A stretch of DNA of 26,563 nt from a virus. Its lineage: Duplodnaviria > Caudoviricetes. Where the stretch lies: the IMG/VR virus record IMGVR_UViG_3300030397_000412, positions 1-26,563 of that record. One strand, given 5' to 3'. Below, in pieces: positions 452-26,563 of the stretch (the stretch's first letter is position 1; each line of letters opens with the position of its first letter). Under the pieces are notes generated by a model, which worked only from the letters and a program-made list of their open reading frames with translations, did not search any database and was not told the DNA's origin. The position numbers and the translations under genes are program-made.

Positions 452-1078
452 CTATCCAACAATAGACTCCTCCTCGTATATCTCTACGCCAGGGATTTTA
501 GTGCCACCAAGAGCAGCTCGACGCAGCACACTCTTGTTGCTCCAGTCAATGAAACCGAGTTTTGCGAGTGTCGCAAGGTCGTAGGGACTCAGTTCTTCCA
601 CAGGCTTGTATCGTAGGTTCTTTGTCACACGTGACTTGAGTCCTGCACGTGTTGCTTCGGTCTTTTTCTGTTCCAGTTGTTCGCTGGCTTTCTCAAAAGA
701 TAGTTTGCCCTCTTGTAGCTTTTTGGAGATGGTCTCCTCCTTTTTAGCGTTTCGAGCGTCTATCTTTTGTTTGTACTTGAGTACCGCACTTGCGAGAACT
801 TTCTCTGCGTCTTTGTACTGGTCTTCGATTGGCTTCCAGAAATCTCGTATTGCCGTTACCGTAGCGTTTGCCGGGTCGAGCTGTTTCTTTTTTTCCTGAG
901 TGATGAGCTTCCCGACTTTCTTGATGTTGGCAAGCATCTCGCTTGCTTCATCGTATTTTGCATCACTTTTGAGTCCTTTGGACATTGACTCTGCTGCTGA
1001 CACTGCTCCGGATACTTTCTCCCGAACGACAGCAACATCTTTAGTCTCCAAGTCCTTTGGTGTTACTTGTTGGTTCAT
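452..1078 (-). CDS. coiled-coil recombination-module protein (Gp157/Gam/DUF1351-like)
   Basis: 208 aa helical, K/E-rich, with LDP...IRDFWKP and a C-terminal KIPGVEIYEE motif typical of proteins encoded beside phage annealases. Confidence 0.65.
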   Translation of the reverse strand: MNQQVTPKDLETKDVAVVREKVSGAVSAAESMSKGLKSDAKYDEASEMLANIKKVGKLITQEKKKQLDPANATVTAIRDFWKPIEDQYKDAEKVLASAVLKYKQKIDARNAKKEETISKKLQEGKLSFEKASEQLEQKKTEATRAGLKSRVTKNLRYKPVEELSPYDLATLAKLGFIDWSNKSVLRRAALGGTKIPGVEIYEEESIVG

Positions 1079-1331
1079 ACTTGGCTTTTTGAATGTTTAA
1101 ATACTTGATAATGTTAGTACCTTTAATCTTGTAATCCCGGCCACGACCCTCGCCGGTTATCTTGGCTTTAAGAATCTTGCCAGCAATAAAATCATCCATC
1201 ACAGCGTTCACATACGAGATGTTGTTGCTCTGACTGATCCACGGAAAGAAGTTGCCTTTGCGCATTTCCGTGATGTTGTAGACTGCTTGCTCGTCTACTC
1301 GACTTATTGCTTTTTCGATCCTTTTAAGCAT
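1041..1331 (-). CDS. small basic putative DNA-binding regulator (MerR/excisionase-like wHTH?), leaderless
   Basis: MLKRIEKAIS...GKILKAKITGEGRGRDYKIKG. The ATG at 1331 sits 6 nt after a TATACT -10 box, so the longer ORF-track start (1463) runs through the promoter. Confidence 0.6.
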   Translation of the reverse strand: MLKRIEKAISRVDEQAVYNITEMRKGNFFPWISQSNNISYVNAVMDDFIAGKILKAKITGEGRGRDYKIKGTNIIKYLNIQKAKYEPTSNTKGLGD

Positions 1332-1337
1332 GGGTGT

Positions 1338-1366
1338 AGTATAGTCTCTTATTAAAAGAGATGCAA
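1338..1366 (-). promoter_or_regulatory. sigma70-type promoter with palindromic operator in the spacer
   Basis: TTGCAT-N17-TATACT; spacer contains CTCTTTTAATAAGAG (1346-1360); perfect DnaA box TTATCCACA at 1374-1382. Confidence 0.75.
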
Positions 1367-1642: not shown

Positions 1643-1891
1643 CTATTCATGGCGACTTGGATCACCGATTGGCGCACGGCCAACTGGTGCATTAACCTCT
1701 ACCCCTACGTGGTCACATTGCTTTTTCTGCCACTCACTCAGGTAGAAGTTGGGGAAACTGTCTGCATAGTCTGCCCATTTTTTACACTCGTGTGTTGCGT
1801 TTCTTTGTACACCCCCACCTATCACGAGAATGAGAAAGAAGACCACAACACCAGAAGTGAATATGATTGCAACAATATCTTTTGTACGCAT
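1643..1891 (-). CDS. small membrane-anchored protein with two cysteines
   Basis: MRTKDIVAIIFTSGVVVFFLILVIGGG transmembrane helix, then ECKKW...WQKKQC; ATG at 1891. Confidence 0.65.
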   Translation of the reverse strand: MRTKDIVAIIFTSGVVVFFLILVIGGGVQRNATHECKKWADYADSFPNFYLSEWQKKQCDHVGVEVNAPVGRAPIGDPSRHE

Positions 1892-1919
1892 ACTTGGCTT
1901 TTTAATTATTGAATAAATT

Positions 1920-2442: not shown

Positions 2443-2690
2443 CCTCCTGTGTGTTGTTGGCAGGTGGGGAAAGGCATATCTCTGTCTTGAGATAAATCAA
2501 GGTTAATATCACCATCGCCTAGATATGCGTATATGGCATGGACATTCTCAATCCCCCATCTGCCAACAACGTGACTCCCTCGACCCTCAACCCATGAAAT
2601 GAGTTAAGGGCGGTTTTACACTATCGAGCTTGGCAGTACGATTGTGTCCTCATAGAATGAGGGTCAAAGGAATCACTATCAAAGAACTCT
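2443..2690 (-). ncRNA. ~250-nt highly structured, apparently bistable leader RNA / ncRNA
   Basis: Helix 1 pairs 2676-2658 with 2589-2571 (19 bp, 3 G-U, extendable). Abutting helix 2 pairs 2570-2552 with 2471-2453 (18 of 19 paired). An 8-bp pseudoknot pairs 2528-2521 with 2481-2474. It starts just after a promoter. Confidence 0.7.
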
Positions 2691-2696
2691 GTGGAC

Positions 2697-2726
2697 AGTA
2701 TAATCCTCTTATTAAAAGAGAGTCAA
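2697..2726 (-). promoter_or_regulatory. sigma70-type promoter with the same palindromic operator
   Basis: TTGACT-N18-TATACT; CTCTTTTAATAAGAG at 2706-2720; TGTCCACA boxes on both sides (2728-2736, 2690-2698); boxA-like GTTCTTTGA just downstream. Confidence 0.75.
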
Positions 2727-2737
2727 GTGTGGACAAC

Positions 2738-2765
2738 GACAAAACCACCCGTAGGTGGTCTTGTC
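2738..2765 (-). terminator. intrinsic terminator-like hairpin ending the late/lysis operon
   Basis: GACAAGACCACC-UACG-GGUGGUUUUGUC with a cUACGg tetraloop and U-tract, downstream of the CHAP gene. Confidence 0.65.
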
Positions 2766-2812
2766 AATGGGTACTCCCCTTTGAATCGGTAAGCCAAGTA
2801 ACCGAGACTACT

Positions 2813-3250
2813 CTATTGTACCACAAGGGGTTTCCAAAATCCCCTTATACTATGGTGGTTTTTGGGGATACGTCTTTTTGTCTCTTTGCAGTGCTGCCAG
2901 TTTCCCTCTGTGATCCAATATCCAATTTCATCTATTGACGTTACGACAGAAACATGTGCTACTTTTGAATCAATCAAGACAAGTACACCTACCTCTGGTT
3001 CAGCGTTTGGTGTCAGGTCTTTTGCATTTATACCGTAGGGTATTTTTATGCCTTTTGATCGAGCATATCTGATGCAAGAGCACTCGATAGGGCCGTGAAG
3101 CTCCTCCAGATAGGGGTCAGCTTCTGTGCCTTGAGGGTGTGGATTAATTACCACTTGCTCAGTTGTAACCATCATGGTCTGGTCAGCAAGACATTGGTTG
3201 ATGTCAGGCTGTAAAAACAAACCTATGAAAGCTGTGAGAATGTCAGGCAT
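2813..3250 (-). CDS. CHAP-like cysteine peptidase / peptidoglycan hydrolase
   Basis: CSCIRYAR (Cys), P-x-VG, AHVSVV (His), ITEGNW (Glu) and a terminal IRGF; located in the lysis module. Confidence 0.75.
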   Translation of the reverse strand: MPDILTAFIGLFLQPDINQCLADQTMMVTTEQVVINPHPQGTEADPYLEELHGPIECSCIRYARSKGIKIPYGINAKDLTPNAEPEVGVLVLIDSKVAHVSVVTSIDEIGYWITEGNWQHCKETKRRIPKNHHSIRGFWKPLVVQ

Positions 3251-15208: not shown

Positions 15209-15976
15209 TTAATTATTTACTAAAATGAGGTTGTACTGCAAATATACTGATGTGTTGTTGGCATCAACGGCTGCTGTCCACTTCAAATCTGTCTTTTCAG
15301 TAATGGCCATCGGTATCGTGAAAATAAAGTCGGGAGTGGTAGACGTTCCCTCGTTTTTGAGATCAACTTCCTGCTGTAATCTCCATGCGCCGCCAAATGG
15401 CTTCATAAAGAGTCGCAAGCGTGCCTCTTTTGATCCTGCGCCTGACGATGAGGCAACCCCAGCTTGACCACCTACCATGTAAGCCGTTCTGTCTGCCGGG
15501 ATAGTATAGTGAGAAATCAGTGTTTGGCCATCACCTGCGGCAATAAATGCCTGTCTTGAGCCTGAACCTGAACTTGTCGGGTCAGCAGTAATGTCACCAT
15601 CGTTGGTTTCAACAGAGCCAGCAGTTGCAACAAACATTCGGTGAACCCTCAAATATGATTTCGTAGTAGTGACGGTGCTTGTGCCATTGGGCGTGACAGT
15701 TTCTTCGATCTCCTTATAGTCAGCATCAAGGCCCTGAATCATCACAGTACGAACACCCGTTCCTGCAGGATCACCGTCATCGTTTGTGCTTGTTGATGCA
15801 ATGTCCATAGTCTCGGCAGCAGAAAGATACGCCCTTGCTCCACCACCAGCCCAAATATCTTCTTCGGCTGCAGTATCAATGTCAGCATTTCTTCCAAACT
15901 TTTGCACAGCAGTATGACGGGGTATGTTGCCCTTTGCCACTTCGAGAAAAAAGTCTTTTGTGATTTTATCGGTCAT
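15209..15976 (-). CDS. conserved phage structural protein
   Basis: KFGRNADID...EDIW...IQGLDADY...YTIPA motifs, recognised from phage structural regions. Confidence 0.65.
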   Translation of the reverse strand: MTDKITKDFFLEVAKGNIPRHTAVQKFGRNADIDTAAEEDIWAGGGARAYLSAAETMDIASTSTNDDGDPAGTGVRTVMIQGLDADYKEIEETVTPNGTSTVTTTKSYLRVHRMFVATAGSVETNDGDITADPTSSGSGSRQAFIAAGDGQTLISHYTIPADRTAYMVGGQAGVASSSGAGSKEARLRLFMKPFGGAWRLQQEVDLKNEGTSTTPDFIFTIPMAITEKTDLKWTAAVDANNTSVYLQYNLILVNN

Positions 15977-19065: not shown

Positions 19066-19926
19066 TTACTGTCTGCCTTTCAACATGTCATGCACAAGGT
19101 CACGTGATGAATGTGCGCCAGAGATTTTGCTGAAAGGTACAGATTGCTCTGACTTTCCACCTCCGGGTACGTTCACTGGAGCATTTCTGTCCTGCTTATT
19201 CTTGATCGCATTTTTGGTTGCAGTTACAGTCGCCTGTCGCTGCTCAAAGTATGCGGAGTAAACAGAGCGCAAATCCTGTACAGTTTTGACCGGAAAATTG
19301 TGAGTGGCAGCGTACGTAAAGAACGCTTTCTCGTCAAATTGTGGGTCAACTGACCTGATCTGATCCATCAATCCGTCCACTTGCTCTTTAGCTTGTTGCC
19401 GAGCTTCGGCAAGGTGCTTTTGCTCCTGCTGGATACCGAGACGTATCTGCTCAGCAGTATACTCTCGTTCCTCTTTCATTGCTTGCTGGAGTTCCTCAAG
19501 TGTCTGAGGGTTCCAACCCTCACGCATAGAGGGGGGGAGCTTGGAAGTGTCTTGGACTGGTGGGGCTTCATGCCCTGGACGTTGTGCTGGATGTTGTCCA
19601 GCACCGAGTGGGCCATACTGTTGTTTGTATTGCGCCAACTCGTTTTCTGCCGTACTGCGAGCATCTTGCTCTTTGTGCCAGTTCGACATCATTTCTCGGA
19701 CTCTCGTATCAGCGTCTGATGCTGCCGGTTGTTGGGTGTTTTCACCATCCGGCTGGTCATCTTGCTGACCTGTGCCATCCTGATTTTGGTCTGAGTCCGT
19801 ACCTGAACCAGGAGTATCTGCTTGATGAACCTGAGCGTCATCACCGTTTGACGAACCAGCTTGCTGCTGATTGTCCACAGTTTCTTGACCGCCCGGATTT
19901 TCAAGGCCTAAATCATTTGAGTTCAT
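19066..19926 (-). CDS. capsid scaffolding protein
   Basis: Disordered D/Q-rich N-terminus and coiled coils; lies between portal and MCP. Confidence 0.7.
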   Translation of the reverse strand: MNSNDLGLENPGGQETVDNQQQAGSSNGDDAQVHQADTPGSGTDSDQNQDGTGQQDDQPDGENTQQPAASDADTRVREMMSNWHKEQDARSTAENELAQYKQQYGPLGAGQHPAQRPGHEAPPVQDTSKLPPSMREGWNPQTLEELQQAMKEEREYTAEQIRLGIQQEQKHLAEARQQAKEQVDGLMDQIRSVDPQFDEKAFFTYAATHNFPVKTVQDLRSVYSAYFEQRQATVTATKNAIKNKQDRNAPVNVPGGGKSEQSVPFSKISGAHSSRDLVHDMLKGRQ

Positions 19927-25287: not shown

Positions 25288-25545
25288 TCACTTGTATGTT
25301 ATCACAACTTTTTCTTTGTCGTTGGGCACTCTCGTCCAGACACCATCCTGTGCAATGATCTCCTCGGTATCAAGGTTTCTCACGACCATAGTGTTCTTGG
25401 GTATCTGTAGGCCAACGAGACGCTTTTGTAGCTCAAGTGTGGTCTTTTTATAAAACTTACGCTTTTCTTCTGCGACCTTTTCACGCTCAGCTTCAACTTG
25501 AACAGGCGTGTAGAGTCCAAAGATGCGTGCTATGAGTGATTTCAT
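25288..25545 (-). CDS. small hypothetical protein
   Basis: ATGA overlap with the groEL stop codon. Confidence 0.65.
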   Translation of the reverse strand: MKSLIARIFGLYTPVQVEAEREKVAEEKRKFYKKTTLELQKRLVGLQIPKNTMVVRNLDTEEIIAQDGVWTRVPNDKEKVVITYK

Positions 25546-26563
25546 TGTGGCATTGGTGGCTTGTGAGGATTCTCTGATTTCTCCTCTTTCGGCTCGTCAT
25601 ATACAACAGCGTTTGTAATTAAGAACAGTCCGACCACAGAGGATGCCTGCTCTAATGCTACTCGCTCAACTTTGAACGGGTCAACAACGTCATCAGGTAG
25701 TGCGTATGGGTCTTTGTTCCCCTCTAGCACCAATTCAGGGTTCTTTCCTTGATTCTCAAGTATTTGTGCTGCTGGTCTTCGCACTGCATTTCGTATGATC
25801 TGGTAGCCTGCACGGACATCACTGTCTCTCTCGTTGTTGATGAGCTTGTCGAGTACCTTTGATGCTTCATACAAGGCCATACCGCCACCGGTCACAATAC
25901 CCTCCTCGATAGCAGACTTTGTTGCGTTCACTGCGTCCTCGATACGGTACTGCTTTTCCGTTGATTCTTCTGCTGTTGCAGCTCCTACACGGATGACAGC
26001 AATACCACCTGCCAATCGAGCCAAACGCTTCTCCAGCTTATCTTTCTTGTAGCTGCTCTGCTCGTCTTTGAGATCACGCTTTATGCTGGCAATACGTGCT
26101 TTCTTGCCTTTTGCTTCACCTTTCGCTCCGATAATGACAGCACGGTTCTTGTAGACCTTAATCATATCTGCACGTCCCAGGTCTTCCATCGTTACGTCCT
26201 CAAAGTGGTCTCCGGTCTCCTCTGCGAATGTCTTTGCACCGGTAAGCAGAGCAAGATCATCGAGTTGTGCTGCTTGGTCGTCACCGTATCCTGGTGCTTT
26301 GATAACTACCACAGGCATGACTCCTTGCAGCTTGTTTTTGAGCAACACTACCAATGCTTCGCCCTGACATTCACGGGCAATAATCACCAGTGACTTGCTC
26401 TTGGTGTTGTCGTGTACCAGGTTCAGTACGTTTGCTACGTCTTTCACTGAGTTGAGTGGATGATTGACCAGAGCAATGTACGGATCATGCAGCTCAGCAA
26501 TGCCACGCTCTATGTTGGTCATAAAGTATGGGTTTACCCAGCCACTCTCAATCTGCATGCCCC
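25542..26563 (-). CDS. groEL: phage-encoded chaperonin GroEL-like (C-terminal part; 5' end beyond window)
   Basis: GMQIESG, KAPGYGD, DLGRA, KLEKRLARLAGGIAVIRVGA, RIEDAVNATKSAIEEGIVTGGG and VDPFKV. Confidence 0.95.
   Translation of the reverse strand, partial: GMQIESGWVNPYFMTNIERGIAELHDPYIALVNHPLNSVKDVANVLNLVHDNTKSKSLVIIARECQGEALVVLLKNKLQGVMPVVVIKAPGYGDDQAAQLDDLALLTGAKTFAEETGDHFEDVTMEDLGRADMIKVYKNRAVIIGAKGEAKGKKARIASIKRDLKDEQSSYKKDKLEKRLARLAGGIAVIRVGAATAEESTEKQYRIEDAVNATKSAIEEGIVTGGGMALYEASKVLDKLINNERDSDVRAGYQIIRNAVRRPAAQILENQGKNPELVLEGNKDPYALPDDVVDPFKVERVALEQASSVVGLFLITNAVVYDEPKEEKSENPHKPPMPQ

Follow-up and report, generated by a model that had tools for sequence, protein, structure and literature searches.

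The window, by which we mean the whole stretch of 26,563 nucleotides analysed here, is a podophage fragment of 26.6 kb in which the genes for terminase, portal, major capsid, SU10-type adaptor, amidase and GroEL all lie on the minus strand. Its capsid protein finds its best GenBank match in a TM7 phage (33% identity), and GGAG stands ahead of the start of only 5 of the 35 minus-strand open reading frames (ORFs); on these two grounds the host is likely to belong to the CPR. One relative sits in a contig of a Woesearchaeota bin. The phage-encoded GroEL-like chaperonin occupies 25542-26561 (-), and the TM7 phage record has one too. Three DNA sequencing runs, all from one study that may be the source of the record, cover the stretch, and the element described below is identical in them; no RNA run is listed among those carrying it. 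Full-text searching of the open-licence literature turned up no account of RNA regulation in phages of the CPR.

The element, a folded RNA at 2690-2453 (-), is placed 3' of the lysis genes and 5' of a run of small genes, which we take from their position and promoters to be early. The features of this part of the window are as follows.

2697..2726, minus strand: sigma70-type promoter TTGACT-18-TATACT (10 of 12 match), start expected near 2690
2677..2690, minus strand: single-stranded 5' terminus, for which weak pairing to the SD or first codons of the 59-aa gene is predicted
2571..2676, minus strand: module 1, stem-closed, predicted to be bistable from folding and shuffles
2630..2658, plus strand: promoter-like TTGGCA-17-TAGAAT (10 of 12 match); RNA from there would be antisense to 2666-2690
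2453..2570, minus strand: module 2, predicted to fold with an 18-bp closing stem, an inner hairpin CCAUGCC/GGCGAUGG and a 15-nt loop
2258..2437, minus strand: 59-aa orphan ORF with GTG start and SD GGAGG at 2447-2443; a gene caller favours starting at 2515, which gives 85 aa
1993..2277, minus strand: 94-aa orphan ORF with SD GGAGG and GGCCAAG right after the start codon; an ACT-like lead only (score 0.81)
1338..1366, minus strand: second promoter copy, TTGCAT-17-TATACT, with the same spacer, from sequence match

By reading, both the 59-aa and 94-aa products are charged and lack a hydrophobic stretch, and neither has a Pfam match. The ACT match of the 94-aa product falls under the tool's lead threshold. 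Neighbouring proteins were of no use as a homolog anchor, giving one weak locus. The two SD-led genes end at a terminator-like site and a GC-rich multi-hairpin (1982-1922 and 2012-1987, minus strand) that lie immediately ahead of the gene at 1891. Further downstream, a reading frame that lacks a start (1627-1400, minus strand) continues in frame past two stops after the 82-aa gene and is possibly a remnant; we presume a resemblance to a 3D-domain cell-wall protein, and it has no Pfam match.

The first-pass annotation of this DNA had proposed a structured minus-strand RNA with two competing folds, and this much is supported. The helices of minus-strand 2690-2453 are real and beyond chance: 2700-2430 folds with a z of -7.66 on the minus strand (0/200 shuffles as strong) and only -3.02 on the plus strand, and after correction for composition the element is the top of 1054 contig windows for fold strength. 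It resolves into two abutting stem-closed modules, each of which folds alone (z -6.8 and -5.5), with zero unpaired bases between their closing helices P1 and P2. Both helices of the long-stemmed fold B were found as described, P1 (2676-2658/2589-2571) having 19 bp with 3 G-U and 9 further bp past one mismatch, and P2 (2570-2552/2471-2453) having 11 bp, an A.C mismatch and 7 bp. The local hairpins CCUCAU/AUGAGG and 2611-2599/2595-2583 and the pairing GCAUAUCU/AGAUAUGC are likewise present where they had been placed. A G-U bias pointing to the minus strand as the functional RNA is borne out for module 1 (z -6.79 on the minus and -2.43 on the plus strand) but not for module 2 (-5.52 versus -5.19), which folds equally well on both strands. 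The element had also not been recognised as a known family, and the window indeed has 0 Rfam matches at gathering level, so that no riboswitch, ribozyme or sRNA family can claim it; the best sub-threshold scores were 20.2 of 47 bits for RNAI (E 0.22) and 16.3 of 44 bits for PK-repZ (E 0.42). ARAGORN made no tRNA or tmRNA call.

Within module 1 the two alternatives are a 28-bp rod and a cloverleaf made of a 12-bp stem and three hairpins, separated by 0.8 kcal/mol and with predicted occupancies of 63% and 37%. When the interior was shuffled the mean gap was 12.7 and 0/400 shuffles had a gap as small as that observed; when only the 17-nt linker was shuffled the mean was 9.4, with 1/400 as small. 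Thus the bistability that had been claimed for the whole element holds inside module 1 and does not extend outside it. A short duplication could also produce this property. The loop CUGCCAAG (2636-2629) is present in rod and cloverleaf alike.

For module 2, the 8-bp pseudoknot suggested earlier (2528-2521/2481-2474) is plausible, but 53/1000 shuffles also yield an 8-bp helix inside the module. CAUGCCA occurs inside units of three phages (the window at 2541-2535, minus strand; L144 at 15301-15307; L143 at 19823-19829) and in two of the three it opens a hairpin with a 15-nt loop.

The promoter TTGACT-18-TATACT ends 7 nt upstream of the folded region. Its 15-nt spacer motif (2706-2720) recurs at 1346-1360, two copies where 0.06 are expected, and a pattern scan for spacer plus TATACT gave 0 matches in viral contigs. 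The common spacer is a short inverted repeat, CTCTT...AAGAG, possibly a repressor or activator site. A terminator-like hairpin with a cUACGg loop (2765-2735) closes the unit upstream of the promoter. Together, the promoter match, the duplicated spacer and the upstream hairpin make a transcript starting at about 2690 likely. The unit that this hairpin closes, and the sites with which it may pair, comprise the following.

2815..2823, minus strand: TGGTACAAT, an extended -10-like sequence that may be the predicted small RNA's promoter, read in the sequence
2735..2809, minus strand: predicted small RNA of ~75 nt, or late transcript 3' end; fold z -3.89, 0/200 shuffles, with ends that we infer
2786..2805, minus strand: seed hairpin UCGGU-UACUUGGCUU-ACCGA, its loop complementary to downstream AAGCCAAGUA sites
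2735..2765, minus strand: terminator-like 12-bp hairpin, cUACGg loop, U-rich 3' side, from the fold; absent from the terminator-scan list
1891..1900, minus strand: predicted target, a 10-nt seed-loop complement whose last base is a start codon's A
1655..1670, minus strand: predicted target, the best ungapped whole-hairpin complement, at the 3' end of the 82-aa gene
1154..1168, minus strand: predicted target within a coding region, where a bulged A separates 8 bp from 6-7 bp
1078..1087, minus strand: predicted target, a 10-nt seed-loop complement ending in the A of the 208-aa gene's start codon

The predicted RNA at 2809-2735 would consist of the seed hairpin, a small hairpin and the terminator-like hairpin; its extended -10-like site has no -35 match and is absent from the promoter-scan list. 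All three complements of at least 8 nt to the seed loop on the minus strand lie downstream, at 1087, 1168 and 1900, and two of the three finish in the A of a start codon, although these two motif-bearing start regions are 78% alike over 32 nt and so are not independent sites. Among ungapped complements of the 24-mer, the top four (at 1671, 1313, 1908 and 1095) fall within 813 nt, a clustering equalled by 0/1327 real control 24-mers and 0/500 shuffles. Of 752 overlapping tiles ranked for binding to the seed hairpin, 7 of the top 12 are in 1-2700. The hairpin had been chosen as a query after its motif had been noticed. Hairpin queries from 19 records gave 6/1312 with sites clustered inside 1.5 kb, of which 3 are repeats, this hairpin being the tightest of the others, and no convincing equivalent in the relatives; a looser control (4/6 sites within 2 kb) was satisfied by 242/2318 hairpin queries. 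An alternative SD role for AGCCAAG was rejected because it is not a general start motif in the relatives, where its count is 2/105, like that of its permutations.

The loop of module 1 also carries GCCAAG, together with an in-register AAUCG match to the stem of the seed hairpin (11/15 positions). At equilibrium it is a weak target of that hairpin (-6.9 kcal/mol, with 146/752 tiles binding better), kissing interactions lying outside the model; the loop of the ~75-nt RNA could nonetheless kiss that of module 1.

Capsid and tail alignments yielded relatives at 52 + 15 viral loci, 22 loci in metagenomes and one in a genome, and 21 related records were examined whole or nearly whole. The closest capsid relatives (67-73% identity) are encoded on contigs of 37.8-39.3 kb. 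Searches for the element itself found no homolog: blastn gave only three 22-nt chance matches in phages and none in plasmids; pattern scans of viral contigs gave 0 matches, 43 without similarity beyond the pattern, and 7 that were all inside long reading frames; a DNA search of the 21 records returned only short chance matches; single-sequence covariance models run over 97 sources (1,315,753 bases) found self only; a module 1 covariance model run over 23 records, with no positive control, found none; and the contig holds no second copy. What the related phages do have is long-stem units, 39 of them non-coding (3 in the window, where the coding mask was lifted by hand over 2430-2812) as against 30 coding, or 150 versus 28 per Mb. 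AT-rich non-coding DNA is enriched in hairpins for ordinary reasons.

Several of these units resemble the arrangement in the window. In G002 a promoter-like site comes first, followed by two units (176 and 169 nt, z -6.99), a tRNA-Met, a row of four small genes with SDs and a homolog of the gene at 1891; the window has the same order, but with two SD-led genes and without the tRNA. The G002 units share no alignable sequence with modules 1 and 2, and of four relatives only G002 has a cassette directly upstream of the 1891-gene homolog. In L165, at 6883-6600 (-), a promoter match is followed by a 118-nt long-stem unit and, 14 nt on, by tRNA-Thr, itself enclosed by a flank stem of about 25 bp. 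L045 (12581-12669, plus strand) and L093 (400-488, plus strand) carry homologous 89-nt leaders before homologous genes, in which 29/29 pairs are kept with 9 double changes, as judged from two sequences of a unit different from modules 1 and 2.

We tentatively favour, at a little under an even chance, the reading that the element is a processed RNA cassette of two stem-closed modules which has a trans-acting antisense partner. According to this proposal the two abutting modules would head a likely early transcript, and their stems would offer RNase III-type processing a handle by which the modules are freed or stabilised; the upstream ~75-nt RNA would repress likely early messages by pairing at GCCAAG sites; and the alternation of rod and cloverleaf would set both the availability of the full 28-bp stem for cleavage and the presentation of the GCCAAG loop, while leaving access to the SD of the 59-aa gene unaffected. 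The cassette part is suggested by the promoter with its duplicated spacer, the independent folding of the modules, the long-stem units of relatives and the G002 layout, and further by the kept pairs of the L045/L093 unit, the stem around the tRNA in L165 and the precedent of RNase III stems in T7; the antisense part by seed-loop complements that all lie downstream, by the clustering of four sites and by the tile ranking. The proposal is weakened by the lack of a module homolog, by the cassette's presence in one of four relatives, by ordinary hairpin enrichment and by a P2 of only 18 bp, and its antisense part by the post-hoc query, the looser control, the lack of an equivalent in relatives, module 1 being a weak target, and the missing -35. 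The first-pass annotation, which had also listed an antisense trigger and a standalone ncRNA, overlooked the promoter and the terminator that lie upstream, the modular layout that the window has in common with related phages and the upstream antisense hairpin, the last of which adds weight to those two options.

RNase III substrates have about two helical turns of near-continuous duplex. The P1 rod (19 + 9 bp) is of this length and P2 (11 + 7 bp) is borderline, and RNase III-type processing appears to be the simplest known use of long stems here. In the passages of the T7 account that bear on this, RNase III stems mature the early RNA (PMC8708148), and in a corresponding part of a study of CPR rRNA, intervening sequences of RNase III type are described as inferred only (PMC11270868). 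The likeness to T7 R1.1 lies in the long stems, imperfectly paired, that an early phage transcript carries before its small genes; in contrast to R1.1 as portrayed in those passages, the stems here close folded inserts of 50-80 nt, two of them abut, and one has an isoenergetic alternative (PMC8708148).

For the proposed antisense partner the closest likeness is to C4 of P1/P7. The CI RNA of P4 is of the same kind as the C4 antisense RNA. The predicted 2809-2735 RNA, with the ends assumed here, agrees with C4 in size (~77 nt), in three stem-loops and in a loop directed at a ribosome-binding region, although the Rfam C4 models had no match in the window. As the relevant sections of two papers describe, the loops of the P1/P7 RNA pair at ribosome-binding sites (PMC5320573; PMC12197685); both it and the predicted RNA would be three-hairpin RNAs of about 75 nt with a loop complementary to translation starts of the neighbouring operon, and with partial pairing. 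Unlike C4 as it appears in those sections, the predicted RNA seems to owe its ends to a promoter-like site and a terminator of its own and not to RNase P, and one seed loop has several predicted targets over 1.6 kb, with orphans rather than icd/ant downstream. Because module 1 shows the GCCAAG motif of the targets it could also be a decoy, much like the anti-sRNA sponges AgvB and AsxR; these, in the portion of the source that deals with them, are sponges of host sRNAs, whereas here decoy and sRNA would both be the phage's own and in tandem (PMC12197685).

A cis switch governing the two SD-led genes, controlled by antisense RNA or by time in the manner first annotated or like IncI repZ, seems unlikely. 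In such a scheme the cloverleaf would form first, its loop would pair with UUGGCAG and delay P2, and the balance would be tipped by the upstream small RNA or else by RNA made on the plus strand from 2630-2658. The bistability of module 1, which is far past that of shuffles, speaks for it, as do the local hairpins being lowest in energy for the prefix to 2581, the stage right before P1 becomes able to close, the weak Rfam likeness to PK-repZ and RNAI, and the pairing of the SD in the long-range fold when this is forced; blocking 2690-2666 frees the SD, but leaves the GUG paired. Against it, the two near-equal folds (37%/63%) expose the SD identically, which gives no support to the gating of the next gene that had been put forward. 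CUGCCAA and UUGGCAG can indeed pair at the sites named (2636-2630 with 2566-2560), but the 7-bp pairing of the module 1 interior with the P2 arm is at chance level, being matched by 1088/2000 shuffles. The SD-hiding fold, which requires it, has -81.8 against -106.2 kcal/mol, a cost overstated by the pseudoknot-free model, and an ensemble probability of 0.0; it could at most be a short-lived co-transcriptional state. Nor are the two SD claims of the annotation confirmed: the CCACCUG/CAGGAGG pairing that was to hide the SD yields only -5.8 kcal/mol with a mismatch, and the SD said to be exposed in fold B is mostly paired at 5/6 end-points of the folded sequence, its exposure being set by weak pairing, either with the 5' end or with codons close by, and shifting with the end-point chosen. 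With low-energy folds that share SD exposure and an SD-hiding fold 24 kcal/mol higher, a translational riboswitch is not supported; the leader shows no terminator-like alternative. The plus-strand promoter-like site is possibly due to chance, the scan having found 7 such sites where 5.7 are expected; if RNA does start there, it could, with reversed polarity, be a motif decoy that covers the 5' end of the leader.

Two classical leader systems bear on the same scheme. In Inc RNA/repZ control the antisense RNA is fully complementary to its target loop and encoded opposite it, with a rep gene downstream. The hok/sok-type leaders have metastable local hairpins that yield to long-range stems, and a 5' end that pairs near the translation start. 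The element resembles hok/sok in setting local hairpins against long stems and in its 5' end pairing near the start, but differs in the charged proteins encoded downstream and in having no established antisense RNA of full complementarity; type I toxin-antitoxin identity is not supported, both ORFs being without a hydrophobic toxin peptide. It resembles the IncI system (named in titles cited by PMC10724649) in its UUGGC/GCCAA loops and in a leader loop that can pair with a downstream stem arm, but here the antisense is not opposite its target, loop polarity is reversed, there is no rep gene and the score is 16.3 against 44 bits. Inc RNA/repZ control is not supported, since no plus-strand promoter match covers the loop and the downstream ORFs are orphans.

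It is also doubtful that the element is a constitutive, unprocessed 5' leader that stabilises its message, the alternative fold being a by-product of a short duplication and AAGCCAAG a protein-binding site or a trace of shared ancestry of gene starts. Consistent with this are the 17/39 long-stem units found no more than 35 nt from the start of an ORF, compared with 198/755 random non-coding positions, the likeness of the two motif-bearing start regions, and the similarity of CCUUUGACCCUCAU to CCCUUAACUCAU. It leaves unexplained, however, the exact reverse complement of the motif in the adjacent hairpin loop, the in-register matches to the hairpin stem at 1670 and in module 1, and those units of relatives that enclose a tRNA or lie between promoter and terminator.

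More improbable is one standalone structural RNA of ~240 nt, a coaxial two-domain rod that functions as one piece and perhaps binds a protein, the ACT-like product of 94 aa being an example. P1 and P2 do abut, and an equally tight pair is essentially unmatched elsewhere (one GC-rich match in the 1,424,236 bases of a redundant set), but the units of relatives stand singly or 14-100 nt apart, no terminator follows P2 and the ACT match is under the lead threshold. A DNA-level element (cruciform, origin or mobile-element end) is very improbable: module 2 would allow it by folding equally on either strand, but module 1 pairing is G-U-rich and strand-specific, a promoter match is directly upstream and there is no second contig copy.

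The favoured reading of cassette plus antisense partner, if real, would amount to a compact system in which a phage antisense RNA with several targets, their sites predicted exactly, stands beside a bistable module, and to a class of stem-closed non-coding units across this phage group that is absent from Rfam. A bolder extension, which we consider speculative and rather unlikely, is an all-RNA timing circuit in a CPR phage, in which the small RNA, encoded where late genes meet early ones, would silence several early genes through one seed and the bistable decoy would soak that small RNA up. Were it true, the decoy, carrying the same motif, would be the first product of the early promoter, and stem-closed cassettes would be a general, uncatalogued mode of small-RNA delivery in these phages.

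Other units seen in the course of this analysis deserve mention. The L045/L093 leaders are a candidate new RNA family with a conserved anti-SD-like loop, UCCUCCUAG, and no Rfam match for the L045 copy. A 163-nt stem-closed RNA in L073 (8992-8830, minus strand), also present in L061 (3365-3527, plus strand), lies between a TTGACC/TATACT match and a U-tailed terminator, has no Rfam match and is likely to be a standalone ncRNA. L067 (12542-12337, minus strand) and L090 (11924-11700, minus strand) have stem-closed RNAs around a long insert, with what we take to be tRNA-like D- and T-arm sequences; neither matches Rfam and L090 has no ARAGORN call. In the window itself, the third long-stem unit (20082-19984, minus strand; z -4.81) has a 35-nt G-free loop and stands 58 nt upstream of the gene ahead of capsid.
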